From the IMG/VR virus record IMGVR_UViG_3300017528_000566: 64,000 nt of DNA. One strand, 5' to 3'. Below, one piece after another: positions 1,222 through 56,600 of the stretch; positions within the stretch are counted from its first letter, which is position 1, and each line of letters opens with the position of its first letter. The notes under the pieces were generated by a model. It had not been told where the DNA came from. It did not search any database and saw only the letters and a program-made list of their open reading frames with translations. Both the position numbers and the translations under genes were made by a program. This DNA is from an uncultured virus (IMG/VR IMGVR_UViG_3300017528_000566). Its lineage: Duplodnaviria; Heunggongvirae; Uroviricota; Caudoviricetes.

Positions 1222-1245
1222 TGGGGGACAAGCTGGGGGACAAGC
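1222..1245 (+). repeat. perfect 12-bp tandem repeat TGGGGGACAAGC x2
   Basis: Read directly at 1222-1233 and 1234-1245. Confidence 0.85.
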
Positions 1246-3624: not shown

Positions 3625-3742
3625 TTCGGATAAACCGAGCTTTCCAGATTACGAGATTTTTCCAGGAATTCCGCCGCGTGCCGGCTTGACTTTTGGATCA
3701 TACCGCGAATGGTGACATGCGGCTAAATTGCCCCACGGCAAG

Positions 3743-3903: not shown

Positions 3904-3918
3904 CCGATGCTCAGGGGG

Positions 3919-3953
3919 TTGAAGTTCTCTCCCCATCAGAGCGTATAGGGGGC
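3919..3953 (+). promoter_or_regulatory. TTGAAG-N18-GTATAG promoter-like motif
   Basis: Same layout as motifs at 39186(-), 39797, 40402, 54941 and 55224; GTG start 5 nt after the GTATAG box. Confidence 0.6.
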
Positions 3954-4250
3954 GTGGCGAACGAGACTTATCCAGCACAGATCGTCTTCATCGAGGATGA
4001 CCGCGGAGGGGCGTGGTACGGGCGGCTCTTCAATCTCCCTGCTTGCCTAGACACGGGCAATCACGGGAGGCCGGTCACGGGCACTCCGCGGTTCGATATC
4101 ATCGAGCGCGAGGACGGTCGATATCAGGCGACCATGCAGGGCGGTCCCAAGGGCAGCCGGCGTCACCGGACCTATCCCACGCTGAACGCTGCTCAGAAGG
4201 CGGCGATTCGATGGGCGGGGCGTAGGTTCCGGGTGCCGAGCGGGCGATAG
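3954..4250 (+). CDS. hypothetical protein
   Basis: 3' part of ORF 3693-4250; GTG start placed by the promoter motif (MANETYPAQ...). Confidence 0.65.
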   Translation: MANETYPAQIVFIEDDRGGAWYGRLFNLPACLDTGNHGRPVTGTPRFDIIEREDGRYQATMQGGPKGSRRHRTYPTLNAAQKAAIRWAGRRFRVPSGR

Positions 4251-4299
4251 GGGCTGGCCAGCTCCAGCTCGGGGAGCCAGCCGTGGTGTAGCCACTAGG

Positions 4300-5364: not shown

Positions 5365-5367
5365 GCG

Positions 5368-6555
5368 TCATGGAGGCGGCGGAGCTGCTCGAACCCGGTC
5401 CAGTTCCAGGCCCCACCGAAGGTGCCCGCGGATTGTGTAACTGTCTGGGACGGTGATTCGATGGCTGATGTCCCTACTCTGCAGAGGTGGGACTTGCAGA
5501 TATACGGACTCATGGGGGGCTGCGACAACATCACAGCGATCTAGAGGGAGCCCCTCATCCTTGCTGGGGCAATCGAAGACTCGCACGCTCAGCTCTAGTC
5601 CCGTGACTGTGTGCTTGTTGTTCCGGTTACGCACGCGGGCGACGATGGTTGGGTATTGGCCTGTTGCTCCCGAGAGCCTTTCGTCTACCAGCTCGACCTG
5701 CTCGGTGGGGACTCGAGCGTACGAAGCAAGCCGCTCCGCCTCATCCTGGTGTTGCCGGTACATGATCAGTCCATAGACGCCGAGCGCCAGGAGCACGATA
5801 AGCGCCGCGAAGCCACCCAGGATACGTCTCCAGTGCTCGAACCCACGAAGGACCCACCAACAGCCCCACGGGAGAGCTCCAACTATGAATCCCCACGCGA
5901 GCTTCTCTACGTGGTTATCCCCGGTTGCGCTCACGGCGGCCAGCAAGCAGATAGACGACCACGTGGCTCCCACGGCGATCCCGACGCGTTTCCAGGCACT
6001 TGTTTTCCAAGCACTTGTCTTGGGGACTGTCGCGGTCGCTGTCTCTGTCGAGCTAGAGTCGGGTGTTAGCATTGGTTGATGTTTTCCGAGCCCCCACACC
6101 AAGCCGGATACAGCTGCGACATCGAGGAGAATGTGAGTGATGAGCGCTTTGGTGGTTGCCTTGTCAGCACCACCCAGACTCACACAGTGACTCCCTAACA
6201 ACAGCAGCGAGAACGCTATCATCAGGTATGCGGCGATTCTCGCGGGCCGGAGTGCGAGCCAGAGGGTGCCAGCAACGATCAGCCCGACATCCCACAGGGC
6301 CGAGTAGGTCCGCACGTAGATGACGCCGAAGAGGATCCACGCGGCGTGCCCCCAATACACGCTGATCGCCGCTGTGTAGGGGTAGAAGGCCTGTCTTCGA
6401 TTCAGCAGCCAGAAGACCGCAACAGCGACGAATCCGGGGAACATCATCCCGAGCCCGAGGTATTGCCCAATAGCGGACCCCACGAGACCCCCTAGCACTC
6501 GGAGATTTGTTGGCGGTTCCTCCTTAGCGGTGGTGGTCACCAGGCCATCTATCAA
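5368..6555 (-). CDS. multi-pass membrane protein with soluble C-terminal domain
   Basis: 395 aa with about 8 hydrophobic segments, then a beta-rich domain. Confidence 0.75.
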   Translation of the reverse strand: MIDGLVTTTAKEEPPTNLRVLGGLVGSAIGQYLGLGMMFPGFVAVAVFWLLNRRQAFYPYTAAISVYWGHAAWILFGVIYVRTYSALWDVGLIVAGTLWLALRPARIAAYLMIAFSLLLLGSHCVSLGGADKATTKALITHILLDVAAVSGLVWGLGKHQPMLTPDSSSTETATATVPKTSAWKTSAWKRVGIAVGATWSSICLLAAVSATGDNHVEKLAWGFIVGALPWGCWWVLRGFEHWRRILGGFAALIVLLALGVYGLIMYRQHQDEAERLASYARVPTEQVELVDERLSGATGQYPTIVARVRNRNNKHTVTGLELSVRVFDCPSKDEGLPLDRCDVVAAPHESVYLQVPPLQSRDISHRITVPDSYTIRGHLRWGLELDRVRAAPPPP

Positions 6556-6727
6556 CGCTCACTACTGTCATGCAAGCGTGATGGGGCAACCTTGACTTAG
6601 GCCCTATGTCAAGGACACCTGGCTCAACTAGCTTCGGGGGCCGGGGTCTTGATCGTGATACACCCGCGTGTTACCTGACGCTGGTGGGGCGCTGTGTGCA
6701 CGCGCTCCCATCACGAGAGGGTAACAG

Positions 6728-7639
6728 GTGTCGACTCGGAAATGTCCGTATTGCTGTGAGAAGATCCAAGCGAGGGCTAGTGTTTGCAGGCACTGTCATG
6801 CGTCGAGTCCGCCGATCAAGGCCATGGGCTTTTTTGGAATGCTGGGCCTAGCTGCAATGTCAGGTCTAGTCTTCTTCACGGTGCTCGGGCTTGTAGTTAG
6901 CAGGGGGAGCTCGGGAAGCACGGCGCGGAGCAACGCAAGCGCGTCGCAGAGCATCGCTGCAAACACCTCTGAGAGCACCGCAAGCCCGATGACTTCGGAC
7001 GAGCCCAAGTCACCGCGGCGCAAATCCTTGCTTCTACAGCTTGTGGAAGCCTCCGACCGCCAGGAGTCAGCCTCTACCGCCGCATGTCGACAGTGGTTTG
7101 ATCACCGCCCTAACCTCGGTTCAGCCTTGAGCGTTGAAGACTTGCCGGACTGGGCCTGTGGTACCCGCAGAACGGTCGAGACTGACAAGGGTAGCTACCT
7201 TTGCTACCTGAAGGACACCAAGGTCGTGACTATCTGGCACGTGACAGGGGACGATCGGGTCGCGGTGTTTCGTGCACCAAATTCCGAGTGTTCCGGCCAG
7301 ACGATCCTGAATCAGACCCGAGCAGCAGTTGGCGATGTCCCTGGGTACAAGGTAGTGGACATGGTTGCGCAACAGCTCGGTGGCCGGCGAGTCGGCGGCC
7401 AGAACATCAGTGTGATTGTGGGCAAGTTGCAGCCGACCACACCCGAAGCTGAGATGGAGCGGGTCGCAGGGGAGATCGCGCGCCGGGAAGATGCCACTGG
7501 ACCAGGTGATCACGTTTACGTTTACTGTAGCGACGCGGCACTCAAGGCGGACCGATCGGAGATTTTCAAGAAACAGCACCCGAATGCGGTGAGCTGCAAC
7601 CTAGGCGCATTTTACGACGGAGCCTTTCACCGGCTATGA
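6728..7639 (+). CDS. zinc-ribbon + TM membrane-anchored protein
   Basis: KCPYCCEKIQARASVCRHC, TM helix, Ser/Thr linker, Cys-containing ectodomain. Confidence 0.8.
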   Translation: MSTRKCPYCCEKIQARASVCRHCHASSPPIKAMGFFGMLGLAAMSGLVFFTVLGLVVSRGSSGSTARSNASASQSIAANTSESTASPMTSDEPKSPRRKSLLLQLVEASDRQESASTAACRQWFDHRPNLGSALSVEDLPDWACGTRRTVETDKGSYLCYLKDTKVVTIWHVTGDDRVAVFRAPNSECSGQTILNQTRAAVGDVPGYKVVDMVAQQLGGRRVGGQNISVIVGKLQPTTPEAEMERVAGEIARREDATGPGDHVYVYCSDAALKADRSEIFKKQHPNAVSCNLGAFYDGAFHRL

Positions 7640-7657
7640 GCTAAGGCAGCCCCGGTC

Positions 7658-7882
7658 GTGTGGCGCTCGCGTGGTATGGTGGCATGGGTGACTCGTAAAG
7701 AAGCCTACATACGGTTTTGCGCTGGCACCTACTATGCCCTTCAGTACCCATCCCAGCGGGCGCTCGCACACAGCAAGCATTTTGCCTACGCGCTACGCCG
7801 GGCGCGAAAGCTTGGCTACCACACCAGGGTGTACGTGGGATGGGGATCAACTGTGTATAAGCCAATCCAGGCGGCGCGATGA
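7658..7882 (+). CDS. small hypothetical protein
   Basis: Stop overlaps next ATG (ATGA); start uncertain, possibly GTG 7688. Confidence 0.45.
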   Translation: MWRSRGMVAWVTRKEAYIRFCAGTYYALQYPSQRALAHSKHFAYALRRARKLGYHTRVYVGWGSTVYKPIQAAR

Positions 7883-8127
7883 AGCGCAACGCAATCCCTA
7901 CCCGTGAGCGACTCAGGGCTCGGATCCTTCGGCTGCAGTACAGGTGGGACGAGACGCGCCGGGTGTCAGACCACGGGGAGAGCTGCCGCCTATGTCGGCG
8001 CGTGGATATGTATGCGGGCGAGGACGATCCGCGGGACGCGGAGGGTCATCCGCACTCGAGAGGTTGCCCGGCCAAGGGGCTACCCGCGGAGATCCGGCAT
8101 TACCAAGGCTTGCTCGTTCGGGAGTGA
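7879..8127 (+). CDS. small hypothetical protein (CxxC...HxxxC)
   Basis: 82 aa; SCRLCRR...HPHSRGCP. Confidence 0.6.
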   Translation: MKRNAIPTRERLRARILRLQYRWDETRRVSDHGESCRLCRRVDMYAGEDDPRDAEGHPHSRGCPAKGLPAEIRHYQGLLVRE

Positions 8128-8165
8128 GAAGCACCTTGTGCGCACACCTGCTAATCCAGGTGTGC

Positions 8166-8438
8166 ATGGACAGACGCTTCCTCACGGACAATGAGCCACC
8201 TCGGCCCCGAGCTGGAGCTTACAAAATTTTCGGGGTGGTGTTGCGCCTGCTCTACTGGTTGGTGGTCGCTGCCCCGGTGTGGGGCATAGTCGACAGAGCC
8301 TTGGGAAATCCGCCCCACTATGTCTGGGGGTTCCTGACGACATGCCTTTGGATCGGACTGTGGTACATGATTTACCGCCAGACATTCGACCCGCCGCACG
8401 ACGGGAACTCGGGTGGCGAAGGCGGCGGCGGTTGCTAA
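8166..8438 (+). CDS. small 2-TM membrane protein
   Basis: ATG 8166 within ORF 7944-8438; two hydrophobic helices. Confidence 0.6.
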   Translation: MDRRFLTDNEPPRPRAGAYKIFGVVLRLLYWLVVAAPVWGIVDRALGNPPHYVWGFLTTCLWIGLWYMIYRQTFDPPHDGNSGGEGGGGC

Positions 8439-8513
8439 CCCGGGCCAATGGTGGAACGTCAGGCTACAGCTGAACGCTTGACCAGCAACCGGAAGTGATC
8501 AAGCCTGGTCCCC

Positions 8514-8795
8514 ATGGAACCAGCGTTGGAACCCATCTCCAATACTCACGCACTCTCTTCACAGGGGCTGCATGCCAAGCACATCACACAGGGCTGGCAG
8601 TTGGTCCGCCCTATGGAGGCACACGAGCTCGCCAGAGTCCGCCTAGCGATCCGGCACTTGCCAGGGAAGGCAACCCAGCTCCTCGGGTACCTGGACCCCT
8701 CGAAGAGGTTGTCCCCTGTCGACTGCGCGGAGCAGTGGGCGCAAGACATCCTCCGGGAAGCAGTCGAGATCGAGGCGGACCTGATCGAGTGGTGA
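8514..8795 (+). CDS. hypothetical protein
   Basis: 93-aa ATG ORF. Confidence 0.55.
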   Translation: MEPALEPISNTHALSSQGLHAKHITQGWQLVRPMEAHELARVRLAIRHLPGKATQLLGYLDPSKRLSPVDCAEQWAQDILREAVEIEADLIEW

Positions 8796-8811: not shown

Positions 8812-9333
8812 TCATGAGTAGTAGTGCCGCTTCCCGGGTGGCGCCTTCCAAGTAATCTCCAGGGGAGGTGGCAGCGGTAGCCGCCCCGAGCGCGCCGCCG
8901 CCATGGTCGCGCACATCTCAATGTCCTCTTCGTACTGCAGGGTGGCTCCGAAGAGCGCCATGAGCATCCGGTCAAGGAGCTCCAACGATGCCCTTGAATA
9001 GCCACCGACGATGCAGCCTGCGGCCAAGAGCACGGCCTCATTGAGCGCATCAATTCTTCCCCTCAGCTCTAGGCAACGCTCGGGTGTATCGGTACCGAGG
9101 TAGTCCTCCGCGAAGTGCTCGATGAATTCATGGTGGCATCGAGCACGCCGGTCTAGGGCCTCGCGCATCGATTGGACAACGGCCTCGGGGGACGAGCTCG
9201 ATTCTTGGCCTGCGGCGATTGCGGCACGCAGGTCGTCCAGCATGGTGGTGCGTTGGTACTGCAGCATTGGGACGCTCTGCCTCACCATTGGATCCAGCCA
9301 GTGCGCGAGGCAACGGACGGTTTGTGCACCCAA
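8812..9333 (-). CDS. hypothetical protein
   Basis: 173-aa ORF with helical composition; start uncertain. Confidence 0.55.
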   Translation of the reverse strand: MGAQTVRCLAHWLDPMVRQSVPMLQYQRTTMLDDLRAAIAAGQESSSSPEAVVQSMREALDRRARCHHEFIEHFAEDYLGTDTPERCLELRGRIDALNEAVLLAAGCIVGGYSRASLELLDRMLMALFGATLQYEEDIEMCATMAAARSGRLPLPPPLEITWKAPPGKRHYYS

Positions 9334-9507
9334 GGCCGGGTCACTTCGATCCCAGCTTTAGCCACAAGAGCCAGGCCACGCCGGGGAGCACCGCGAGGGT
9401 CCACCACACTGGGTAGTTCCGCTGTCTCGGCCGTTCAGGGGTTACTTGAGCGGTGGGCTTTCCGTTCGGCTGAATGCGCAAAGGTATGCGATAACCAGTC
9501 ACGGACT

Positions 9508-10986
9508 ATGGCGACCATACTCACTCAAGCGGAGTTTAACGAATCGATAGTCACGCAAGACACGGAGCCACAGTGGAGCGACGCCACACGTGGGCGCATT
9601 TTGGTGGTCGACGACGACCCGGGAAGCCGCGCGCTGCTCGCAGATGCACTGCGCGGAGAGGGCTACGAGGTCGAGACCGCTGCTGACGGTTTCAAAGCGC
9701 TGCCGAAGCTGCAGGAGTTCGCTCCCGACCTACTGCTCACGGATCTCAAGATGCCTGGTATGGACGGCATCCAGCTGATGCAGAAGGCCTTCGAGAGTGA
9801 GCCTGAGCCAGTGGCCATCCTGATAACAGGATCCAGCAGTGTTGACACAGCTGTGGCGGCGATGCGTGCTGGAGCGGAGGACTACATCACCAAGCCGATC
9901 AATATCGGCGAGCTACGCATCATCGTCCAACGGGCACTCGAACGCAGGCTGCTCACGCGAGAGGCTGGGCAACTTCGGGCACGAGTGGCGGCCCGTGATC
10001 GAATCGACAACATCGTTGGGCGCAGCGCTCCGATGCAGCAGGTCTTCGAGACCATCATGCAGGTGGCGCCTTCGCGAGCCTCGGTATTGATCTTGGGCGA
10101 ATCAGGCACCGGCAAGGAACTCGTCGCCGCGGCCATTCATCAGCATTCTCCACGAGCGAGCCAGCCGTTCATCAAACTGCATTGCGCCGCGCTGGCTGAA
10201 TCGCTGCTTGAGAGCGAGCTGTTTGGGCACGAACGCGGGGCCTTCACGGGTGCACTCATTCAACGTGACGGGCGTTTCAAGCAAGCCCACGGCGGCACGT
10301 TATTTCTCGATGAGATCGGGGAGATCTCGCCGGGCATCCAAGTCAAGCTTCTGCGCTTTCTCCAAGAGCGTGAGTTTGAACCAGTCGGCGGCAAGTACAC
10401 GGTCAAAGTCGACGTCCGAATCGTCGCAGCCACAAACCGAAACCTCGCAGAGGAAGTGAAAGCGGGGCGTTTCCGCGAGGACCTCTTCTATCGGCTGAAC
10501 GTGGTTACGATCGAGACCCCGCCGCTGCGTGCGCGGCCGTCGGACATCCCGCTTCTGGCCTTGCGCTTCCTGAAGAAGTTCGCCATCGAGAACGGGAAAG
10601 ACATAAGCAGCTTCACCATTGAAGCACTCCAACAGCTTCAGCTCTACAGCTGGCCTGGCAACGTGCGCGAGCTTGAGAACGCGATTGAACGGGCCGTCGT
10701 AGTGTGTCGGCACCACGAGGTGCGAACGCAAGACTTGGCCCAACATATCGTCAAAATCACGGGGCGAAACCCCGATGGGATGCCCATCATCCCGGGCGCT
10801 ACACTCGCCGAGCTCGAGCACTACGCGATATTGAAGACGCTAGAGCATACAGGCGGTGCGACGACTCGCGCCGCGGAGATGCTTGGCGTTTCAGCCCGCA
10901 CCATCCAGTACCGGCTGCGCGAATACGCAGAGAAAGCTGAAGCAAGCTCACAGTCGGGGCCTACAAGCAGGGGGACCCAAGTATGA
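9508..10986 (+). CDS. sigma54-dependent response regulator (NtrC/AtoC family; REC-AAA+-HTH)
   Basis: ILVVDDD...LLTDLKMPGMDG (REC), GESGTGKE, ELFGHERGAFTGA, LFLDEIGE, WPGNVRELEN, C-terminal Fis HTH (AAEMLGVSARTI). Confidence 0.96.
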   Translation: MATILTQAEFNESIVTQDTEPQWSDATRGRILVVDDDPGSRALLADALRGEGYEVETAADGFKALPKLQEFAPDLLLTDLKMPGMDGIQLMQKAFESEPEPVAILITGSSSVDTAVAAMRAGAEDYITKPINIGELRIIVQRALERRLLTREAGQLRARVAARDRIDNIVGRSAPMQQVFETIMQVAPSRASVLILGESGTGKELVAAAIHQHSPRASQPFIKLHCAALAESLLESELFGHERGAFTGALIQRDGRFKQAHGGTLFLDEIGEISPGIQVKLLRFLQEREFEPVGGKYTVKVDVRIVAATNRNLAEEVKAGRFREDLFYRLNVVTIETPPLRARPSDIPLLALRFLKKFAIENGKDISSFTIEALQQLQLYSWPGNVRELENAIERAVVVCRHHEVRTQDLAQHIVKITGRNPDGMPIIPGATLAELEHYAILKTLEHTGGATTRAAEMLGVSARTIQYRLREYAEKAEASSQSGPTSRGTQV

Positions 10987-34577: not shown

Positions 34578-35414
34578 CTAATGGGCAGCACTATGCGCCG
34601 CCGCGCTTATGATGCCATTGGCTTGGCTGCTGGCACCATTACCATTGATCGCTCGCGGCTCCCCGTGCGGAGCATCGGCGCCGAACCGAACTTTGTACGT
34701 GTCGATCGCTTTGTAGATCTTGCCCTTCCCGCACTTGTACCGGCGCATGAGTTTGGCAACATTGAGCTTCCCTTCTAGATATGCGTGAACCTCAGCATCG
34801 GAGGGGCCAGGCTTGGGTGCTCGGGCACCTGCTCCTGCCACGGCTGTTTTGGATTGGGCTTTGCCCTTGCTCGCTTCCAAGGCAGCCATTGCGACTCCCT
34901 TGGTCTTGTCGACGCGCAGCACATCCCGATCGTGATCCCACGCGGGCTTGCCTTTGACAATGTAGCCGATGCCCTTCTGCCAACGCCGGCCGTCATCAGG
35001 CATGCCAATGATGTCTTGGACTCGGCGGCGCAGCACTGACGTTGCAATACCCAGCTTCTCGCAGAGCTGGTGGGGAGCTACGTCACCACGGATGTTCTTC
35101 AGCACTTGCGATACGGGCACGTCCTTCCAGGTGCTGTTGCGCTTGCCTTTGAACGGGTCTGCCGCTGTTGCGGTTACCGCTGGGGATGGCTTAGTGCCAT
35201 CGGGCTTGGCCTTGGATTTGGGCTTAGGCTTGGCCTCGACTATCTCGATACCAGGCTGCGATATGATGACATCGTTGGTACTACTCAGTGCACGTAGTTT
35301 GTCTCGTGCCAGCTTTGCAGCTAGCTGAGTGCGTTCTACTTCAAGCGCCGCCGCCACAATAGGTCGGCAGTGGCCACATAACAGGGCATCGATTTGAGGG
35401 TCCATGCCGCGCAA
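34578..35414 (-). CDS. basic protein with two HTH-like segments
   Basis: PHQLCEKLGIATSVLRRR; NVAKLMRRYKCGKGKIYKAI. Confidence 0.65.
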   Translation of the reverse strand: MRGMDPQIDALLCGHCRPIVAAALEVERTQLAAKLARDKLRALSSTNDVIISQPGIEIVEAKPKPKSKAKPDGTKPSPAVTATAADPFKGKRNSTWKDVPVSQVLKNIRGDVAPHQLCEKLGIATSVLRRRVQDIIGMPDDGRRWQKGIGYIVKGKPAWDHDRDVLRVDKTKGVAMAALEASKGKAQSKTAVAGAGARAPKPGPSDAEVHAYLEGKLNVAKLMRRYKCGKGKIYKAIDTYKVRFGADAPHGEPRAINGNGASSQANGIISAAAHSAAH

Positions 35415-35438
35415 GATACTCCGCAGGCAGGCGGGGAG

Positions 35439-35454
35439 ACAAGACTAGTCTTGT
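35439..35454. promoter_or_regulatory. perfect 16-bp palindrome ACAAGACTAGTCTTGT
   Basis: Read directly; lies between the distal end of the array and the start of the 35414 gene. Confidence 0.6.
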
Positions 35455-35591
35455 TCTCCAGTCAACGACCTGTTCATCAATTCCTAGTCGCGTCCTAGTC
35501 ATAAGCGGCACATTTTAGCTTCCGCGCACTAGGGGTAGTCTAATCGCTGTAGGATGACCTAGGCAGAAGGATACAATGGGGCACGCTAACA

Positions 35592-36640
35592 GTCTCTACG
35601 TCTATACCTTTTGCAAAGGAGTAGAGCATCCATGCCGCCCGAGCATCACTTCAGTCATGCGTTCAGCTGTGTCGCGGCCACAAAAAGAGCCAGGCAACCC
35701 TGCAATGCTACACAGTCGCTGCAGCGAGAGAGCGGCGCAGTCATTTCGGCGATCTGAAGACCCACGGAGTCTCAGCTGCGAAAGCGATGAGCAACCGACG
35801 CAGCGCAACTTCTACGTGTCTCAACTTCCAAGGGAGCCGGAAACCGAGTCGGTGTCCCAGCGTTATCTAAAGCCTTGTAGGAGCCGAGCATCCATTCACG
35901 ATCGCTTGCGGGAGTCGTCGACCACCGCGTTGTGGTCTTAGCCCCCAAGGCCCTAAGCAGCTTATTCAGGGACGCTTTTCCAGGTGTCGGTCATGTCGTC
36001 TCAGTGACATCCCGAGGATTCTGAGCATCCCAGCCGCAAATCACTATGTCTGCGTGTGCTGCCAATCCATGTCGCTGCGCTTGCGCTGTGGATGACCTGT
36101 CTCAGCCGCGAAGGCCTCGGAGCATCCATTTTCGTCACAAGCTCCGCAGAAAGTTCTGAGCGTCTATCGACGGTGCCCCCAGTCCATGTCGCCGTTGTCG
36201 GCGCGCTGGAGCTTCGCTACGCGCCTATTCGGCCTCGTAGCAGCCGTCTCCATGCGGGCAGGTCCCAGTCCTGCGCTCGAAGGCTTTGAGCGGTCTTCCG
36301 TGCACCTGCTTGTCTCAGCGCGTTTCCCGCGTTCGCGGGTCTCAGCGTCAAAGGATCTGAGCACTCCTCCACTCACGGCTCCGCTGACATGGGGCGCTCG
36401 AATACGTCTCGGCGTCGGGTCAGTGTCGTCTCACCCTATTTCCACCGTTGACTGAGCGTCTATTCTGACGATGCCGGCGCAAATAGCGTGCCTACATCAG
36501 GGTACCGCGATCGAAGGCGCGGAGCATCCATTCCCAGTGTGCAGAGGTTCCAGTCCATGTCTCAGCTCCTAAGAATCTGAGCACCCATGCTGGCAGCCCA
36601 TGAGGCACACCGGTCACGATTCTAAACGTCGTAGTGCAGC
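35592..36640 (-). CRISPR. degenerate, hairpin-conserved CRISPR-like array
   Basis: On + strand, units GT-stem-loop-stem-CAYCC(ATT): clearest at 35715, 35769, 35935, 35998, 36099, 36339, 36502, 36559; weaker at 35592, 35671, 35818, 35865, 36134, 36188, 36268, 36428, 36613; unique intervening sequence; directly downstream of the cas12-like gene; no long ORF. Confidence 0.7.
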
Positions 36641-36776
36641 ACTGAGAGGCGATGCCGCTTTGGCGCATCGATCCCCTGGTCTGTGGTGAGCCCGATCTAG
36701 CGGGGTATCTCCGGCAGAGCCGCCTACGCATTCAATTGTCAGATAGCTTGGCCGAGCTCCATCGCACCGGCCACTG

Positions 36777-38810
36777 TCACTCAGCAGCTTCATCCTCCAA
36801 CGTCATCGCTAGCACGTTGAGCGCCGTGTTCTCATCTTGGTCAAAAAGCACCCCGCAGTGAGCACACTTGATGTAGATGGCCTGAGCTCGGTCAGCCTTG
36901 TGGGTGTGCCCGCACGCGTGATGAACCTCGCTGATTCCCCGCTCACTCTGCAGCACCATCGGGGTCTTTACAATCTCCACACCGGCGTTTCTCGCTGCCA
37001 GCTTGAGTGCCGCCATCAACTCGCCTTGTGCCGCCGTGTTGAAGTTCACGCGGTGGGCACGCTCAAGGTCGGACTCACCCTGTTCTGGTTTCGCTTTGTG
37101 CTTCTGCTCCGCGAAGTTTTGCGATGGCACTCGGATCGTCGCGTATTGCTGACACACCTCATGGGCTTCGCGTCGATAGCGGTCCTTGCGTCGACCATAC
37201 GCTTTGTGCCGAACGCCGGCTTCGTGCTGGCGCCCGTGGCGATCTTCCTGTGCCCACTTGTACAGCTCGCCGTAAATCTCCGCATCCCCCTCGAAGCGGT
37301 TTGCGCGCCAATGCGAGACGAGACTGTTGAGGCGCTCGATTGACTTCCATTGGCTTATCGTGCTGCGCGCAGAACGCTCACGTAGCCAGCTTGGCGTGAG
37401 GTCTTGGTGTTCACGTAGCCAACTCACGAGCTGGCCACGTACGGCTTCCAAGCCGGCACGCTGGTCTATTTGCTGGCTCCATCGGACGAGCACCTCGTAG
37501 ATCTCTTGGTCACCCCTGAAGCGGTTTCGTTGCTTTGCCCAGCGCTCGACCAGCTGTTCAAGGCGCCGGACGCTTGTGCTCTCCGCCAACGACTCTGAAG
37601 AAGTGCGAGTCAAGAGCCACTTGGGCGCATGGTCTTGATGATCACGTAGCCAGATCCGGAGCTGTTCTTTAGCGACGTTAAACCCGCGGTCCCGTTTGCC
37701 GTGTCGACCGTCCGCCCAGTCGAGCGAATCCTGGATCCCTTCACACGTAATTTGTCGCGAGCCCCCGTCGGTACCCACAAGGTATGCGACCCGCAAGACA
37801 TCTCCACCGGGGAGCTTCCGGAACCCAAAATTGATCGCAGCGATGTGCCCGTGGATTTTGAGCGGAACGTCAAAGCTTTTGTGCTCTAGCGAAAACCCGC
37901 AATCCCAGACCCGCTGGTCATCAGGGTGGCCCCATTGCCCCTTTGCCTCATGCTTACTGCGCCGGACCCATATCCACTTGATCTGCGCCCCGGGCGGCAG
38001 GGGGCGATGATATTTTAGTGGGAACTTCGCCCACACTGGCTGACGTCCCCCCTCCTTGGTCCCGACGCGTAACCACAGTTTGGCTTCGGTTGGATCTTTG
38101 GACGGGAACAGGAGCCGAGCTCGCGTGTCGGAACAAGCCAACAACGCCTCGGTGGTTAAGCCCTTGGATTGGTTAGCGGCACTGCTCTGGATCTGAACCG
38201 CCAACGATCCGGTGCGCTCATACCTCCGGAACTCTGGGGGCGCGCCTCTCCCGGCGTCCTTCAGGGAGTCCTCTACTCGAAGGTACGTGCCCCAAAAGGG
38301 GGCGTCTTCAGATTTGCGGGCCGCTCGGTTGGCTTCATAGGACCACTCTTGAGCGGCCTCTATGGCGGGCGATCTAGTTTGTCTATACTTAGCGTTAGCT
38401 AGCTCTTCTCTCAACCCGAAACCCGGACCACGCTCGGAGGTCTTGCGTCCAAGGAGTTGCTTGATCTGTTCGATGCGTTTCCGCTTTAGCGGATCAACAG
38501 GAACTCGAGCCCGTTGAGTCTGTCGGGGAGTCTTGATGGCCTCCCGCAGCGCTTCCATCTCTTGAGCTAGCTGCTCAATATTCTCGGTGAGCGCCGCTAC
38601 TTCGGGGAATTGCACGATCGCTTCATTGTAGCGCCGCCGTCGCGCTCGCTCGATTTCGACCAAGCGATTGCGGTAACGGTGCGCCAACAGCAGTTGGTCC
38701 TCAACTTGATCGCGTCCCTCGATCTCTACCTGGTGACTGAAAATCCCATATTTGTAAACTTTACTCGGGATTGCACTAGTCTTGCGTGCTCGGCTCTTCT
38801 TAGCTGCCAT
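36777..38810 (-). CDS. cas12m: Cas12m/type V-U1-like RNA-guided DNA-binding protein, RuvC predicted inactive
   Basis: VYKYG...LAHRYRNRLVEIER, FWGTY, GSLAVQIQ, FPLKYHRPLP, RuvC-I AINFGFR, QWKS.ERL, RHKAYGRRKDRYR, Zn finger HHACGH...CAHCG, RuvC-III FDQDENTA; motif order matches Cas12m as recalled. Confidence 0.82.
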   Translation of the reverse strand: MAAKKSRARKTSAIPSKVYKYGIFSHQVEIEGRDQVEDQLLLAHRYRNRLVEIERARRRRYNEAIVQFPEVAALTENIEQLAQEMEALREAIKTPRQTQRARVPVDPLKRKRIEQIKQLLGRKTSERGPGFGLREELANAKYRQTRSPAIEAAQEWSYEANRAARKSEDAPFWGTYLRVEDSLKDAGRGAPPEFRRYERTGSLAVQIQSSAANQSKGLTTEALLACSDTRARLLFPSKDPTEAKLWLRVGTKEGGRQPVWAKFPLKYHRPLPPGAQIKWIWVRRSKHEAKGQWGHPDDQRVWDCGFSLEHKSFDVPLKIHGHIAAINFGFRKLPGGDVLRVAYLVGTDGGSRQITCEGIQDSLDWADGRHGKRDRGFNVAKEQLRIWLRDHQDHAPKWLLTRTSSESLAESTSVRRLEQLVERWAKQRNRFRGDQEIYEVLVRWSQQIDQRAGLEAVRGQLVSWLREHQDLTPSWLRERSARSTISQWKSIERLNSLVSHWRANRFEGDAEIYGELYKWAQEDRHGRQHEAGVRHKAYGRRKDRYRREAHEVCQQYATIRVPSQNFAEQKHKAKPEQGESDLERAHRVNFNTAAQGELMAALKLAARNAGVEIVKTPMVLQSERGISEVHHACGHTHKADRAQAIYIKCAHCGVLFDQDENTALNVLAMTLEDEAAE

Positions 38811-38885
38811 CGGCCACTTCTCCGTTCGTCACCTACGGATGGGCTACCAGGCCGACGTTGCACTATGCGCTCGCCAATTTCAACA

Positions 38886-39152
38886 TCAGTATTCCTCGGG
38901 GAGTATTACCGTCGTTGAGCTACGGTTTGCTTCTGTGATGACCCAGAACACTTGCGTGCCGTCTCTATAGACCGACATGAGCCTGGAGCCGTCCTTGACG
39001 GCACGTTCATTCACCTGGCGGTCATGGTGATCCACGTCGCCCCAATCACCTTGAGCGTGCCGGGCGATTGCGATGAATACCGCGTCGGTGCTGATTCGTT
39101 CCGCAACACCGCAAGTCGTGATTAGCGCACCAAGGGGAAACCGTTCCATCAT
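38886..39152 (-). CDS. conserved plasmid/phage-related small protein
   Basis: FPLG...RHAQGDWGD...RLMSVY...WVITEANRSSTTVILPEEY. Confidence 0.85.
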   Translation of the reverse strand: MMERFPLGALITTCGVAERISTDAVFIAIARHAQGDWGDVDHHDRQVNERAVKDGSRLMSVYRDGTQVFWVITEANRSSTTVILPEEY

Positions 39153-39186
39153 GCCCTTTATACAAGCTAGCTCCGGAGTTCTTCAA
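39153..39186 (-). promoter_or_regulatory. TTGAAG-N17-GTATAA-AGGGC-ATG promoter-like motif
   Basis: Reverse complement of 39153-39186; same geometry as other copies; could drive the 39152 gene and cas12m. Confidence 0.65.
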
Positions 39187-39781
39187 CGAGGCGGCGCTGG
39201 GAGCGCCGTCGCGTAAGCGCCAGCAGAGCCTTCTTGCGGTGCTTAGTGCAGTGCGCGTACGGCTCGTTCGTGTGTGGGTTGATCTCGCAGGACTTACCAC
39301 AGGTGATGCAACACCCCTCCGCACGCCAGCGGGCTTTGCACTCGGCGACCCGCCTCGCGACATTCGCTGGCGGTTCGTTTCGCGAGCCCGAGCGTTTGCG
39401 GCTTCGCGTGATGGTACGGCGTTTGGCGATCGGCAGAGCCGCCCACTGAGCGCGACCGAGCCCGAGGCAGTGGTCGCAGAGGGTCATGCCATCTTCTGGC
39501 ACGTCGCCGCATTTTGGGCAGAGTCCGTCTAGCCGCCTATTTTCCTGCAGTTCCGCGGCGCGATTCGAGAAGTAATCGAGGCACTGCTGGCACGATTTGC
39601 GGCGCGCCGCCCGCTTACGCCCGCATTTACACAGCTTCTGGCTGCGCCGATGAGCAACCCGAGCTCGCAGCTTTGCATTGATCTCGGAGCGGCAGGGGTC
39701 GCACCGCTTGAAGCCCTTCGGCTGGGGTCGAATGTTGCAGGCGGTGCACTTCGGTTTCTTCACGGGGGCGGTTTCTAGCAC
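39167..39781 (-). CDS. Cys/Arg-rich multi-zinc-finger protein
   Basis: About 8 CxxC-type pairs. Confidence 0.7.
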   Translation of the reverse strand: MLETAPVKKPKCTACNIRPQPKGFKRCDPCRSEINAKLRARVAHRRSQKLCKCGRKRAARRKSCQQCLDYFSNRAAELQENRRLDGLCPKCGDVPEDGMTLCDHCLGLGRAQWAALPIAKRRTITRSRKRSGSRNEPPANVARRVAECKARWRAEGCCITCGKSCEINPHTNEPYAHCTKHRKKALLALTRRRSQRRLVEELRS

Positions 39782-40699: not shown

Positions 40700-40942
40700 A
40701 TGAACAAGATCACTCCATTCCGCCTCCTGGTGCTGCGCCAGATGGTCGCTGAGAAGGGCGCGCTTCCCCCGGGGGGCTATCCCACGGCAGGTCGAGACGC
40801 GGCTCGTTGGTGGGGCGCCGTCCGCTGGCTGCGTGAGAACGGGTACTGTGCGCCGCACGTGAGTGGCGGCCGTTCGGTGCATGCGACTGACGCGGGTCGG
40901 GAACTGTCTCGCACCGCCGAGCTGCCTTTGGTAGAAAGCTGA
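40700..40942 (+). CDS. small winged-helix-like protein
   Basis: WLRENGYC...VHATDAGRE wing pattern. Confidence 0.6.
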   Translation: MNKITPFRLLVLRQMVAEKGALPPGGYPTAGRDAARWWGAVRWLRENGYCAPHVSGGRSVHATDAGRELSRTAELPLVES

Positions 40943-47570: not shown

Positions 47571-49841
47571 CTAGAGAGCTTCGCTGACCACCACCTTGGG
47601 CGCGATAGGCTTGGCACCGTTTGAAAGCCCATTCACGATAGCGCTCACGCTGGAGACGCGGATCATGCCGCTTACGATGGTGTCAGCTGCCTTCTCGAGA
47701 TCACTGCGCTCATCCGCTGGAGGATCTTCCAAGAGTCGGATATGGGAGATCATGCCTTGGGCTGCGATCCGCAGGTCCTCACCCTCAAGAAGGATCTGAT
47801 CGGTGTCGTCAGCGCGACAAATCGCAGCCAACTTGCTGCGCTCAACGACCTCTCGGATGATGGCCGGGATCTGTCCAGCCAGCTGCTCTGCTGCTGCTAA
47901 CAGTGCCCCATCGGTTGCGTGATCCAGCAGGCCGTTGGCATAATGCCGCATCAGCCGGATCACGGCGCTCTCATCAGGCGGGTCAACCGGTATCACGACG
48001 TCGAGACGTCCCGGGCGAAGCATCGCCTTATTGATCTTCTCTAGGAAGTTCGTCGTGAGCACCACCATGAGCTCGGCGTGCTTCATGTCGACGCCGTCGA
48101 TGGTGTTCAGAATGTCGTTCATCGCCTGGTCGCGGGCGCTCCCTTCCTTTTGCTCCATCGCCCGATCTATGTCTTCCGCGAAGATCACGGCGGGGGCGTA
48201 GCGGTTCGCAAAGCGCATCGCCCGGTCGAGGTCAGCGACGTCCTTCAGGTAGACGAACGTCCAGCCATTTTGGATGCAAAGCCGGCTCAACAAGGAAGCG
48301 GTGAGCGTCTTTCCGGTGCCGTACTTACCCGCCAACAGGACGCCGCGCTTCAATGGGATCCCGAGCTTGCGGCACCTCGCGGTATGTATGACTGGCGCAA
48401 ACAGATTGGTCTCGATCTGTTCTTGGACGTGGTCGCTCAGGATGAGCTGATCTTGTGGGTCAGCGACATCGATGAACTTCGGCGCGTAGTCCTTCGGATG
48501 GTAGCCGCGCTGTGCGGCCTCTTCGTCGCTTGGGAACGTGACCATAAAAGCCTTGCCCTTGTAGATGGACCCGACTTTGAGCTCCTCGCGGACCTGCGCG
48601 GCGATCTCGTCCATGATGGGCTTGTACTTGCGCTTGATCTTCCCCGTGAGCTGAAAAAAGAGTTGCTTCTCTCTGTAATCAACCCCGGCTTCGATCTTGC
48701 AATCGGGCATCAGAGGGATCGTGAAATGGCCCCACGGCACGTGCTGTACCTGGTTCACCCCTACCTGGACCTCGATCATGTACGGCGGGACCTCTCGATC
48801 GCCGAAGAAGGTCTGTTCAGTAGCGCCGGACTTGATCGCCGACCCAAAGCGCCGCTCAAGCACACGGCGCAATGCCAAAGCCCCGTCGAGCGGGTAAGCA
48901 TCGAAGCCGGCGCTCCATTGAATCTCCTGCTCCTTGCTCCTTTCGTCATTGGTGAGCCACTCGCGCGCTTTGGCGTGACTCATACCCGCTGGCAGGTGGA
49001 TGGTCTCATCCGGACTCTCTGCGATGGTGACGTTCGTGAACTGCAGTGTGGAACTTTGAGGCGTCGTCATCTGTGCTTCTGGCCCTTTCTGGAGGATCTT
49101 GGGAGCCCTGGTTGTTGGTTCTGGAACGATTACGCCGGAGGTGTCTTCGAGTTGCTTCAGGTTCCGGTCATCGACGTGGAACCTAAATCCTTGTTCGCGG
49201 GCGCGAAGCATCGCCTCCCGCAGTGCGCCATCCTTACGATCGATTTGGGGAACGACCGAGCCGTCTTCATACCAGCGGGACACGACGCTTGTGTCGGTCG
49301 CGATAACGAACACAAGCGCCGGTATTGTCGTGCTGTGCTCGGCTGTCGTGCCGCGTTCGGACAAATAGAGCTCAAAACCTTTATGGTCGACCCGAGTGCC
49401 TCCTAAGTAGAGAGCTTGGTCGCGTACCGGGATCCCATGGACCATCTCGGGTAACTCGCTACGCAGAGCAGGCATACGACCCGTTTCGACCCTGGGGTTA
49501 CTCTCGGGGAGTAATCCATCTGCAATCGCTCGCTCTAAGCCAACCTGAATGACATGAAAACTATCACTATCGATGTCCGCGACTCCTTCGGAATAGGCAT
49601 CCCAATTGGTCGAATCGGAGTACTGCCGGAGAGCCAAGATCCTCGCACTTTGCCGATCTTCGTCGCCTTCGTCCCACACAAGGTAGAGATCGAAATCCGC
49701 GTCGGGAGCCAAGAACTGGTACCAGGTTCCTGAATTCCAGCCCTCCGCAGCAAAGTACTCGTGGATATTCCAACGCGGCTGCTCACTAGTCACTCGGCGC
49801 CTCCCCTTTGGTTGGACAGCGACGGCGTTTCTATCATGCAC
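47571..49841 (-). CDS. AAA+ ATPase with long N-terminal extension
   Basis: RGVLLAGKYGTGKT (Walker A), IFAEDID (Walker B), LTTN, MLRPGRLD (SRH); alternative start ATG 49070. Confidence 0.9.
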   Translation of the reverse strand: MHDRNAVAVQPKGRRRVTSEQPRWNIHEYFAAEGWNSGTWYQFLAPDADFDLYLVWDEGDEDRQSARILALRQYSDSTNWDAYSEGVADIDSDSFHVIQVGLERAIADGLLPESNPRVETGRMPALRSELPEMVHGIPVRDQALYLGGTRVDHKGFELYLSERGTTAEHSTTIPALVFVIATDTSVVSRWYEDGSVVPQIDRKDGALREAMLRAREQGFRFHVDDRNLKQLEDTSGVIVPEPTTRAPKILQKGPEAQMTTPQSSTLQFTNVTIAESPDETIHLPAGMSHAKAREWLTNDERSKEQEIQWSAGFDAYPLDGALALRRVLERRFGSAIKSGATEQTFFGDREVPPYMIEVQVGVNQVQHVPWGHFTIPLMPDCKIEAGVDYREKQLFFQLTGKIKRKYKPIMDEIAAQVREELKVGSIYKGKAFMVTFPSDEEAAQRGYHPKDYAPKFIDVADPQDQLILSDHVQEQIETNLFAPVIHTARCRKLGIPLKRGVLLAGKYGTGKTLTASLLSRLCIQNGWTFVYLKDVADLDRAMRFANRYAPAVIFAEDIDRAMEQKEGSARDQAMNDILNTIDGVDMKHAELMVVLTTNFLEKINKAMLRPGRLDVVIPVDPPDESAVIRLMRHYANGLLDHATDGALLAAAEQLAGQIPAIIREVVERSKLAAICRADDTDQILLEGEDLRIAAQGMISHIRLLEDPPADERSDLEKAADTIVSGMIRVSSVSAIVNGLSNGAKPIAPKVVVSEAL

Positions 49842-55735: not shown

Positions 55736-56134
55736 ATGAAAGCAAAAAAAGTCTTCACGTTCACCGACTACGATGAAGATGGCGACGAGATCGAAGTCGA
55801 GATGGAGCTCCCCATCAAGATGGAGCTCTGCAACGACTGTGAGGGCTTCGGGACCGTGTTGAACGCCTCGATGCGGCACCACGCGTATACACAAGAAGAA
55901 TTCAACGAGTTCTCCGCTGAAGATCGCGAAGCGTACTTCACTCCAGGCAGCCACTATCACGAGCAGTGCCCGACCTGTGCCGGGAAAAACGTAGTCGCGG
56001 TCGTGCACGAGCCCAGTCTTACGAAGGAGCAAAAGGCCTTCTTCAAGAAGCTGCAGGATCGGGAGGAGGCTGAGGCAAGGGACAACGCAGACGACGCCTT
56101 CACTCGCCGCATGGAATCTGGCGGGTACGGGTGA
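55736..56134 (+). CDS. phage-type zinc-finger protein
   Basis: CNDCEGFG...YHEQCPTCAGK. Confidence 0.75.
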   Translation: MKAKKVFTFTDYDEDGDEIEVEMELPIKMELCNDCEGFGTVLNASMRHHAYTQEEFNEFSAEDREAYFTPGSHYHEQCPTCAGKNVVAVVHEPSLTKEQKAFFKKLQDREEAEARDNADDAFTRRMESGGYG

Positions 56135-56379
56135 AACGGCGAGCGAAACAGAAGTTCCTGCAAGGTAAACCCGCAGCCGAGGCGATGACGGGTCGGACCA
56201 TCGTGCGCGCCGATCTCCATGCCTGGGATGACTCGGAGGTGCTGGATAATCCGGCTATGGCGCGGACATGTCACACCTTGGTTCTGCACCTCGACAACGG
56301 GGCACGCGTGGAATTTCTGGTTGAAGAGAATGAGCTCATGGCGTCTGGGGTGTCGCCGATCTACTGCCCGAATGGTTGA
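56131..56379 (+). CDS. hypothetical protein
   Basis: GTGA-coupled 82 aa. Confidence 0.6.
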   Translation: MKRRAKQKFLQGKPAAEAMTGRTIVRADLHAWDDSEVLDNPAMARTCHTLVLHLDNGARVEFLVEENELMASGVSPIYCPNG

Positions 56380-56600
56380 TTACCCCCGGCGTGCGGCAGT
56401 CGCAGGATGCGGCTGCCCGCCTGAAGTTTCGGCCCCCTCGATTGTCTGGGAAGCATGGGCGACTACGACCAAGAGATGCGCGCCCAGCTAGCGGCGGCCA
56501 AGATCGTGGGCGACCGGAGAACAGCCGCCCTGATGCTTTCAGCCCTGCGGGGACGTAACCGGGGCGACCGTCGCGAAGCGGAAGCCATCTGCCGTGCTAA

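Follow-up and report, generated by a model that had tools for sequence, protein, structure and literature searches.

Can a row of hairpins, no two of them identical, be a CRISPR array, and, if it is, does it still acquire spacers, is it dying, or does it encode a fixed set of guide RNAs? The locus that raises this question lies in a 64,000-nucleotide window (the whole stretch of DNA analysed here, part of a 433,843-bp contig). On its minus strand, at 35592-36594, are 12 repeat units that covariance models detect and about six more degenerate ones, directly downstream of a cas12m homologue and on the same strand as that gene. The original prediction drew on nine units, all of which are where it placed them, and held that selection keeps a single hairpin rather than a sequence. 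A fold is indeed conserved; the single hairpin gives way to a predicted two-helix pseudoknot, with a second helix of the GGAT/ATCC type. The conservation described below suggests a fixed guide-RNA set, not a dying array.

The Cas12m homologue

The gene at 36777..38810 (minus strand) encodes a protein of 677 aa, P0001. In phmmer searches of the PDB it matches 23vw_A, 'Cas12m' (E 9e-31), as well as Cas12m2 (8hhl) and the GoCas12m entry 8pm4, both with an E of 1.5e-20. The PADLOC profile Cas12u1 matches it at E 1e-73, and 2876 representative homologues are found at E<=1e-3. P0001 is a member of the Cas12m/V-U1 family.

Is it still a nuclease? Aligned with its relatives, P0001 has the degenerate RuvC-like triad N327/P563/D659. 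In this sequence alignment position 327 is N where the relatives have D, position 563 is P where P0021 and P0037 have E, and D659 is invariant among the aligned relatives. The zinc-finger TNB is retained in the same alignment, with C633, C649 and C652 invariant. We read the RuvC domain as non-canonical or inactivated, the TNB as retained and the protein as one that is probably nuclease-dead. A 65-aa internal duplication, found elsewhere only in P0002, distinguishes it from canonical V-M effectors.

To what degree is the gene constrained? We compared it with that of L002, a syntenic relative whose flanks are collinear across window positions 42120-34027; the orthologue comparison, here and below, is one of two lineages. 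The L002 Cas12m is 84% identical to that of the window. The dN/dS is 0.069 at a dS of 1.36, and the fourfold sites are 45% identical (263 sites). We conclude that cas12m is intact in both lineages and strongly constrained.

PADLOC identified no Cas1, Cas2 or Cas4 among the 88 ORFs of the window, and no Tn7-like gene was found among these ORFs (PADLOC), among 21 ORFs examined with Pfam or in the flanks. A second array that might serve cas12m was sought within the 64 kb with both covariance models described below, and none was found.

The repeat units and their fold

The type V-M architecture proposed for the units, a stem on the gene strand followed by a 3'-AC, was examined with R1, a covariance model for which 46 canonical V-M repeats, all from other loci, were the only input. 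It was run on the complete window (128 kb of strand space) with its filters switched off and a limit of E<=10. Seven of its 34 window matches fall in 35715-36594, all on the minus strand, where the background rate predicts about 0.2. The top four of its 32 matches in L002 fall within the array, on the gene strand. An isolated R1 match of 17.8 bits in the window (40906-40934) falls in coding sequence that is conserved, is unseen by the lineage covariance model R2, and was treated as chance.

The cryo-EM pairs reported for the PmCas12m crRNA join -28..-26 with -17..-15 and -23..-20 with -6..-3 (bioRxiv 10.64898/2026.03.26.714355), and the helix positions in our units equal these base pairs. Helix B has at least four of five pairs in 18 of 20 units of the pair table, and helix A at least three of four in 15 of 20. 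The 46 canonical repeats have 89.3% of their cells paired; shuffles have 62%, and none of 500 reaches the observed value. For the regular units of the two arrays (window and L002), 14 in all, the figure is 81.7%, against 74.6% (1/500), and their covariation score is 0.316, against 0.191 (0/500). Pairing above shuffles, together with some two-sided pair changes, bears out the idea that the fold is kept with compensatory changes. The stems originally quoted are present, those at 35715, 35769 and 36099 with a mismatch on the gene strand. We conclude from these alignments that the units are type V-M repeats with a GAC end and a predicted two-helix pseudoknot, on the gene strand downstream of cas12m.

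How different are the repeats from one another? The mean pairwise identity of seven regular window units is 0.58 (range 0.47-0.72), and, as first noted, no two are identical. The expectation that identity-based tools would miss such an array holds: TRF gives 0 rows and no period on it, and a 10-mer chain finder that flagged 75 of 106 related loci reports nothing at the window array. Motif enrichment over shuffles is a divided matter. The heptamer GTCTCAG occurs eight times in the 64-kb window, both strands counted, which is not above shuffles (mean 11.8); the signal is therefore one of clustering and strand bias, with six of the eight copies in 35769-36565, all on the plus strand. Likewise, GAGCATCC has 10 exact matches, of which five are in 35624-36529, all plus. 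The conserved 5' motif of the units is GAATGGATGCTC.

Two simpler identities were considered and rejected. Against a REP-like hairpin family spread over the genome, no R2 match elsewhere in the window exceeds 14.2 bits; against a protein-coding gene concealed in the array, tblastx shows no similarity to L002 from 35543 to 36640, and no reading frame in the array is conserved between the two. The only Rfam match is a spurious lncRNA inside cas12m.

Layout of the array

All features of the locus are on the minus strand. From the cas12m stop codon to the first unit runs a leader (36595..36776) that is 84% identical to L002. Since its tblastx similarity extends to all frames, it is conserved at the nucleotide and not the protein level. 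It contains a repeat-like element, 'W0' (ATGGAGCTCGGC...GCCGGAGATAC), which may be simply conserved leader, and after this a block of 41 nt (36666-36706) that matches L002 exactly.

W1 (36559..36594) has helix B 5/5 and helix A 4/4, including G-U pairs, and scores 15.6 bits with R1 and 37.4 with R2. W2 (36502..36537), detected by R2, has a shifted stem (CCGCG/CGCGG) and the 3' end TAC, and W3 (36428..36469) is weak, with a long loop (R2 11.6 bits). W4 (36339..36374; R1, R2 and pair table) is followed immediately by a partial repeat, W4b (36312-36338). W5 (36262..36303; R1 and R2) is followed by a block of 32 nt (36230-36261), 32/32 identical in L002, that extends into W6 (36215..36250). The latter is a variant hairpin, GCTACG...CGTAGC, kept in L002 with a longer stem and another loop. 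W6b (36188-36213) is degenerate, with a weak R1 match at 36188-36218, and W7 (36134-36172), degenerate with a shifted stem, was read by eye.

W8 (36099..36135; R1 and R2) is followed by 10 nt (36089-36098) of which nine are identical in L002. W8b (36071..36098), a degenerate unit ending in GCGAC, was recognized from a weak R1 match and the L002 comparison; the 13 nt after it, ATGGATTGGCAGC, are identical in L002 and may be the 5' part of a next repeat, not a guide. W9 (35998..36038) has helix B 5/5 and scores 21.5 bits with R2 without belonging to its training set; its helix A is 3/4 in the aligned register and 4/4 (GGAT/ATCC) by eye. L002 agrees with it at 15/16 positions of the guide-like segment (35982-35997) and beyond that at background level. 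W10 (35935..35970; pair table), with the compensated stem CUUAG/CUAAG, is the best R1 match, at 19.3 bits. The long-looped W11 (35854..35901; R2 20.9 bits, outside the training set) has its 5' 22 nt identical in L002 and a guide-like segment (35841-35853) that is 12/13 identical.

W12 (35769..35804) is supported by R1, R2 and the pair table. W13 (35715..35750; R1 and pair table) has a broken helix A and strain SNPs in its stems. The last unit, W15 (35592..35639; R2 25.7 bits, outside the training set), has the compensated stem CUCUAC/GUAGAG, kept in L002, and 11 of the next 12 nt (35580-35591) are identical there. A syntenic gene of 278 aa with no family match (34578..35414) ends the locus. 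Unit ends lie from ~27 to 123 nt apart, some units abut without a spacer, and loop lengths range between 11 and about 30 nt. The spacing is as irregular as originally described, with a smallest start-to-start distance of ~54 nt, not 35.

In the strict sense this is not a CRISPR array: the direct repeats are not near-identical, the units do not alternate regularly with unique spacers of similar length, and neither the comparison with L002 nor the soil contigs described below show spacer turnover or acquisition.

Conservation between two lineages

If the repeats have diverged so far within the array, how do they behave between lineages? Variant units such as CUCUAC/GUAGAG occur in both the window and L002 at collinear places, and on this sequence evidence we take the two arrays to be orthologous. 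Overall they are 60% identical, against 51% for shuffled sequence, and have exact runs of 15-41 nt in common.

The 14 nt that follow each unit end were compared without gaps between the window and L002, for all 247 pairings. On average 3.8/14 agree; the collinear pairs give 14, 14, 13, 13, 12, 12 and 9. In W8b, W9, W11 and W15 positions 1-12 are 11-12/12 identical and positions 18-40 only 7-8/23. Measured from the repeat end, the first 10-16 nt of four units (W8, W9, W11 and W15) are 90-94% identical, and then identity falls to ~30%. The heteroduplex of Cas12m2 and of PmCas12m is reported to be 17 nt long. Such short-range identity, next to near-saturated neutral sites, fits guide segments under purifying selection. 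This unit-by-unit conservation, guides included, is the strongest evidence of selection at the locus, above the compensation within the array. Among the seven conserved junction blocks, three can be read in more than one way. The ATGGAYTGG after W1, W6b and W8b resembles the 5' motif of the repeat itself; the 32-nt block after W5 extends into W6, and W0 may be plain leader.

Might the array be a decaying relic, once regular, which stopped acquiring and is now eroding, its hairpins and blocks functionless leftovers? The state of several units is what decay would leave: spacing is irregular, partial repeats lack spacers, helix A of W13 is lost and the stems of W2 and W7 are shifted. Single units fold no more stably than shuffles, with z from -1.34 to +1.25 and below -2 in 0/12. 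Contigs from three of four soil runs bridge most of the array, keep its unit order and differ by SNPs and small indels only; the strain-level indels are at W3 and in the stretch just upstream of W1. An 11-nt deletion removes the 5' part of W3 in contigs of two runs, and for this reason we regard part of the array as decaying. SNP density in the array (11 positions per 1003 nt) is about that of cas12m (17 per 2034 nt), or slightly above. The target searches reported below, which gave no target, are also what a relic would give. However, exact runs of 15-41 nt and junctions at 11-12/12 stand beside ~30% identity, and they cannot be neutral survivals; neutral sites between the two lineages are near saturation (45% at fourfold sites, dS 1.36). 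Moreover cas12m is intact in both lineages (dN/dS 0.07), with no other array within 64 kb to serve it. We consider decay of the array as a whole improbable.

Could the conserved blocks be functional without being guides, as promoter or leader signals, protein-binding sites or unrelated small RNAs? The two longest, one of 41 nt in the leader and one of 38 nt spanning W5/W6, contain hairpins of their own, the stretch from W15 to the downstream gene is also conserved (72%), and the ATGGAYTGG blocks can be read as parts of repeats. Against this, conservation in seven collinear pairs begins in or at the repeat 3' end; in W8, W9, W11 and W15 it ends after 10-16 nt, the geometry of a guide, in a sequence specific to each unit; and Rfam recognizes no known RNA family at the array. 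This explanation seems to us distinctly unlikely.

Very hard to credit is an ordinary adaptive array, still acquiring through Cas1-2 encoded elsewhere and tolerating sloppy repeats: V-M loci do generally have long arrays without adaptation genes of their own, yet acquisition duplicates the leader-proximal repeat, so that repeats stay alike, and here units average 58% identity, the variant units and the sequences after them are common to a lineage at dS 1.36, no unit or spacer is gained or lost in the soil contigs of three runs, which span most of the array, and the 88 window ORFs include no Cas1, Cas2 or Cas4.

Searches for targets and signals

What might the guides recognize? In 64 kb of the 433,843-bp contig and 10 kb of L002, 18-mers with up to four mismatches and 13-mers with up to two gave matches at chance level only, and three matches for one guide near 56100-56425 look like chance on reading the sequence. 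Searching both arrays by blastn-short against the masked window and L002 gave no target. Plasmid and phage collections held nothing significant (best E 0.3), and two exact patterns had 0 matches each in viral contigs. No complementarity to the region upstream of cas12m was found, and with <=2 mismatches per 13 nt no match in the window or in 10 kb of L002 was convincing, seeds below ~11 nt being indistinguishable from chance. In yielding no target the window differs from TldR, whose targets are known, at other loci besides flagellin.

No sigma-70-like promoter was found in 35300-39300, leader included. The terminator scan marks two candidate sites, both within the gene, and shuffled sequence has more of them; the tRNA scan gave none. 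Among the 22 sequencing runs listed with this sequence none is of RNA.

Comparison with known systems

Canonical V-M systems (MmCas12m2, GoCas12m and PmCas12m) have a homologous effector with a degenerate RuvC and a zinc-finger TNB, an array directly downstream on the gene strand, repeats with a GAC end and the same two-helix pseudoknot, and neither an expected tracrRNA nor adjacent cas1/cas2. The type is further marked by processing of its own crRNAs to about 50 nt and by DNA binding that depends on a PAM and does not lead to cutting. They differ in that their 36-nt repeats are near-identical, with a period of about 73 nt, as in most of the V-M relatives that we fetched, whereas the window units are 58% identical, irregular and variable in loop length, with guide segments that are conserved between species and show no turnover. 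The original prediction attributed the drift to a lack of Cas1-2. That does not suffice, because V-M loci generally lack Cas1-2 (the class is described in PMC10691335 as having no other cas genes) and most relatives have kept uniform repeats.

Other V-M arrays are heterogeneous. Those of L033, L020, L003 and L012 also have non-identical repeats that keep the pseudoknot, and irregular or short spacing. L033 has 33 distinct repeats, with 98.5% of their cells paired and one pair that is CG in 17 and UA in 15. Unlike the window's, the repeats within each of these arrays are far more alike, and L033 has a regular period of 46-49 nt.

TldR offers a second comparison: a nuclease-dead protein of the TnpB/Cas12 family beside a conserved guide RNA gene, with targets that include flagellin (bioRxiv 10.1101/2023.11.30.569447). 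By analogy, a conserved guide beside a nuclease-dead protein implies that the DNA targets would be fixed and repressed by binding. TldR has one long omega-type RNA with one guide, whereas the window has a dozen tandem units of the crRNA type.

In the CreR and crRNA-like RNAs, degenerate repeats still load the effector and spacers fixed by selection regulate by binding, not cleavage, the targets described being a cas promoter or a toxin gene; each is a single unit, one spacer between two repeats, that accompanies a normal array (bioRxiv 10.1101/2023.03.10.532045; PMC10120712). The window, by contrast, has no normal array, and the one that it has is degenerate throughout.

The V-K and I-F3 CRISPR-associated transposons likewise have a cleavage-dead effector and short, non-acquiring arrays in which a divergent repeat is joined to a conserved homing guide. 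They differ from the window in their Tn7-like genes and in having one such unit where the window has many. The arrays of V-K are short (PMC10691335).

Discussion

The reading that we favour, as on balance probable, is that this V-M array encodes hard-wired crRNAs for a Cas12m that binds DNA, and that it is inherited vertically and acquires no spacers. Such an array would no longer be adaptive: it would pass from generation to generation without gaining spacers while its units diverged from one another. Purifying selection on the repeats would keep the two-helix pseudoknot to which Cas12m presumably binds, and in at least four units the 10-16 nt after the 3' GAC, nearly unchanged, would correspond to the seed and core of the 17-nt Cas12m guide.

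How might such an array act? The minus strand would be transcribed from the leader, and Cas12m would cut out crRNAs of about 50 nt. Guided by one of these crRNAs, the protein, dead for cleavage, would bind at a fixed DNA site and might block transcription or replication there. The sites might lie in conserved host genes, which would be regulated, or in a persistent mobile element.

A bolder proposal, which we advance tentatively, is that this Cas12m has been domesticated as a multiplex RNA-guided transcription factor, repressing fixed promoters of the host or of resident elements through a selected, hard-wired array common to different species. Each diverged crRNA gene would then, perhaps, have its own scaffold variant as well as its own guide.

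If the hard-wired array is real, a natural CRISPR effector runs on a fixed, inherited guide set. The locus would link adaptive V-M systems with the single-guide repressors derived from TnpB, as their multi-guide counterpart. The conserved guide segments are short and exact, so the idea is directly testable against a complete genome. Should the multiplex proposal also prove true, then, with arrays of the L033 type, some V-M arrays would evolve as their guide units are duplicated and diverge, rather than through spacer acquisition by Cas1-2.

Arrays can thus escape identity-based CRISPR finders and yet be under selection, and surveys of 'array-less' Cas12m or TnpB-like proteins may consequently undercount functional guide loci. 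Finally, nature has in effect run a mutational scan on the crRNA handle of Cas12m: the scaffold variants tolerated here, with loops of 11 to about 30 nt and swapped stem pairs, would be useful in engineering this compact DNA binder.

Results

What does the locus encode? No convincing gene occupies the 1.36 kb at 35415-36776. This gap is bounded by minus-strand ORFs, a 278-aa ORF call downstream of the array (34578-35414) and the 677-aa ORF P0001 (36777-38810), which has matches in PDB and PADLOC. By homology P0001 is a Cas12m: its best PDB sequence match is 23vw_A, 'CRISPR-associated DNA-binding protein Cas12m' (E = 9e-31), Cas12m2 (8hhl) and entry 8pm4 both score 1.5e-20, and its PADLOC match is Cas12u1 (1e-73), the former name of V-M. 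Pfam adds only a weak Cas12f1-like TNB domain. The family numbers 2876 representatives (E<=1e-3). In the alignment the RuvC-like triad reads N327, P563 and D659, against D, E and D in some relatives. Since it is degenerate, as in published Cas12m proteins, reported to bind DNA and leave it uncut (PMC10442227, PMC11013384), P0001 should bind without cutting. None of the 88 window ORFs matches Cas1, Cas2 or Cas4 in PADLOC; V-M loci are described as normally free of adaptation genes (PMC10691335).

Several other features of the window were recorded. P0001 contains an internal tandem duplication of ~65 aa between the RuvC-I and RuvC-II motifs (residues about 387-522; 37221-37658, minus strand; 27/61 identical, E = 1e-17); in a 10-protein alignment it occurs only in P0001 and one relative (P0002), and is absent from P0003, P0013 and P0014. 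Neighbouring genes at 9172-10986 (+), 47571-49841 (-) and 4300-5364 (+) encode a response-regulator/sigma-54 activator (PADLOC RtcR/PspF-type model, E = 4e-115), an AAA/nSTAND3 NTPase and an N6/N4 DNA methylase; 17 of the 21 larger ORFs are unmatched in Pfam. Within the 278-aa gene, 88 nt at 35194-35283 are exchanged for 85 other letters in contigs from two soil runs, a patch variable at strain level. A CGGGCGTTAG-type motif is loosely repeated in direct orientation at 1430-2110 (+), at intervals of 35-85 nt, with other short G-rich repeats close by.

Are the array units genuine V-M repeats? Every unit listed in the original prediction was found in the sequence. GTCTCAG has six of its eight window occurrences within 35769-36565, all on one strand, and GAGCATCC has five of its ten exact occurrences within 35624-36529. 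For a test independent of the window we collected 106 loci encoding Cas12m relatives. Directly 3' of the gene, 75 carry a 10-mer repeated in a chain three or more times, with a spacing of mostly 70-77 nt. These loci yielded 46 distinct 36-nt repeats; one further locus, whose consensus had no exact copy, was omitted. The repeats covary strongly in two helices, with 89.3% of cells paired versus 62.0% after shuffling (0/500 as high) and a covariation score of 0.70 versus 0.20. The covarying pairs are those of the PmCas12m crRNA as reported by cryo-EM, -28..-26/-17..-15 and -23..-20/-6..-3 (bioRxiv 10.64898/2026.03.26.714355). R1, the covariance model of these repeats, was limited to helix B because pseudoknots cannot be modelled. 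An unfiltered scan of the entire window returned 34 R1 matches at E<=10, seven of them within 35715-36594 and all seven on the minus strand. This clustering identifies the units as V-M repeats in the correct place and orientation, and bears out the V-M architecture that had been proposed. A lone R1 match at 40906-40934 (minus strand; 17.8 bits, E = 0.058), ~2 kb upstream of cas12m and coding-conserved in the relative's locus L002, is probably chance, as the lineage model R2 does not find it.

The consensus unit, in minus-strand orientation, runs 5'-GAAUGGAUGCUC, stem arm, loop, stem arm, GAGAC-3'. Helix B is the hairpin originally predicted (CUCAG/CUGAG and variants); that prediction had overlooked helix A, in which GGAU pairs with AUCC just 3' of the helix B 5' arm. 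R2, trained on 14 units of regular length from the window and L002, recovers four untrained long-loop units (35592-35639, 35998-36038 and 35854-35901, minus strand, and L002 6919-6968; E 1e-3 to 2e-2) and two weaker untrained ones, with no match above 14.2 bits in the rest of the window. By our count the array comprises 12 model-supported units and about six degenerate or partial ones. Their pairwise identity is 47-72% (mean 58%), and both TRF and a k-mer finder are blind to the array, as had been foreseen for identity-based tools.

Is the fold conserved through compensation, as had been claimed? Over the 14 units of regular length, 81.7% of cells are paired versus 74.6% after shuffling (1/500), the covariation score is 0.316 versus 0.191 (0/500), and one helix-A pair takes six distinct standard pair types. 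At least four of five helix B pairs form in 18/20 units, and at least three of four helix A pairs in 15/20. Pairing and covariation therefore uphold the claim, but single units fold no better than shuffled sequence (z from -1.34 to +1.25; below -2 in 0/12), so that support for the fold is positional and comparative, not energetic.

How old is this divergence? The 44-kb metagenome contig L002, whose Cas12m is 84% identical to P0001, shares collinear flanks with the window on either side (42120-34027 versus 1-8562) and carries a degenerate array of the same kind at 6244-6968, which contains the best four of 32 R1 matches. Between the two cas12m genes dN/dS is 0.069, dS is 1.36 and fourfold sites are 45% identical (263 sites); unconstrained sequence should therefore be nearly unrecognisable. 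The arrays are 60% identical overall, versus 51% for shuffled sequence with the same aligner, and share exact runs of 15, 38, 17, 17, 22, 12, 20 and 19 nt, with 16 and 41 nt in the leader. A hidden gene does not account for this conservation, as tblastx against L002 finds no similarity at 35543-36640. Variant units, CUCUAC/GUAGAG (the last), GCUACG/CGUAGC, GCUCGGCUCCUACAAGGC and GCUCAAAGCCUUCGA, occupy collinear positions in both, which indicates that the repeats diverged before the split and that each variant has been retained since.

What is conserved beyond the units? We compared, ungapped, the 14 nt 3' of 19 window and 13 L002 unit ends. The 247 pairs average 3.8/14, whereas collinear pairs score 14, 14, 13, 13, 12, 12 and 9. 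Eight of the 247 reach at least 10, and the two non-collinear ones both involve an ATGGAYTGG motif. After W9 (35998-36038), W11 (35854-35901) and W15 (35592-35639), 11/12 of positions 1-12 are identical and 7/23 of positions 18-40; after W8 (36099-36135) it is 9/10, then background. A 17-bp heteroduplex is reported for Cas12m2 and PmCas12m (PMC10442227; bioRxiv 10.64898/2026.03.26.714355), and trimming of the PmCas12m guide at position 17-18 (bioRxiv 10.64898/2026.03.26.714355). Unit-specific stretches that are conserved for 10-16 nt past the repeat and no further are what should be expected of a selected guide. After W1 (36559-36594), W6b and W8b comes the block ATGGAYTGG, which is similar to the 5' motif of the repeat itself and, since in L002 a unit end follows it directly, may be a repeat remnant. 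The 32-nt conserved block after W5 (36262-36303) extends into W6 (36215-36250), and the leader block (39-41 nt) is preceded only by a repeat-like element. Four conserved junctions are clean and three ambiguous. The 41-nt leader block itself (36666-36706, minus strand), identical in window and L002 against only 45% at cas12m fourfold sites, holds a small CCCG/CGGG hairpin.

Does the array vary within populations? The sequence or parts of it occur in 22 DNA runs, mostly soil and rhizosphere; no RNA run is listed among them, and contigs of four were compared. In three of these, contigs reach across most of the array. They differ at about a dozen SNP positions and by several small indels, with no gain or loss of units. 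An 11-nt deletion in two runs removes the 5' part of W3 (36428-36469), and several indels fall at 36593-36610, immediately upstream of W1. Positions 1-12 of the conserved segments are free of differences, which is not significant because differences are so few (about 1.2 expected). Parts of the array thus decay while others are kept.

Can the absence of Cas1-2 explain the drift, as had been proposed? It is insufficient, since the V-M class lacks adaptation genes and most relatives still keep uniform repeats. The closest relatives with DNA (33-35% identity; e.g. locus L007) have regular arrays. A heterogeneous array is nevertheless not unique to the window among Cas12m loci. L033 (2853-4535) has at least 33 tandem units with a period of 46-49 nt, each a ~28-nt core plus ~18 nt of variable sequence, in an array that reaches the contig end; its 33 distinct repeats pair in 98.5% of cells and show compensated stem-pair swaps, one pair being split CG 17/UA 15. 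Non-identical repeats with irregular or short spacing (45-100 nt) occur in L003 (2880-3518), L020 (2492-2765) and L012 (3431-3562), and L003 contains duplicated spacer-plus-repeat blocks. These arrays hint that some V-M arrays grow by unit duplication and divergence, a route raised as a way in which type V arrays arose (PMC10691335).

Discussion

By protein and repeat fold the window's system belongs to type V-M, but its array departs from a strict CRISPR array: the repeats differ from one another, their spacing is irregular and the spacers show no turnover. In function it would, by analogy, most resemble fixed-guide systems. CASTs carry an atypical repeat and a homing spacer. A fixed guide is likewise reported for TldR repressors (bioRxiv 10.1101/2023.11.30.569447) and for CreR-type degenerate mini-arrays (bioRxiv 10.1101/2023.03.10.532045, PMC10120712). 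From all three the present array differs by its dozen tandem units, which stand in place of the normal array. In the literature searched on Cas12m, and on degenerate repeats with conserved spacers in type V, no such array is described.

What might such an array do? No target was found in plasmid, phage or viral-contig collections, in 10 kb of L002, or in the window, which covers 64 kb of a 433,843-bp contig. On balance we lean slightly towards a V-M array that is inherited vertically, acquires no spacers and provides a fixed crRNA set for a cleavage-dead, strongly constrained Cas12m. The analysis shows the family of the protein, the fold of the repeats, the orthology of the two arrays and the pattern of selection; we infer that the array is transcribed and processed, that its crRNAs are loaded and that they have targets. 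Each fixed crRNA would bring Cas12m to a conserved DNA site, where its binding would block transcription or replication, as reported for other Cas12m proteins (PMC10442227, PMC11013384, bioRxiv 10.64898/2026.03.26.714355).
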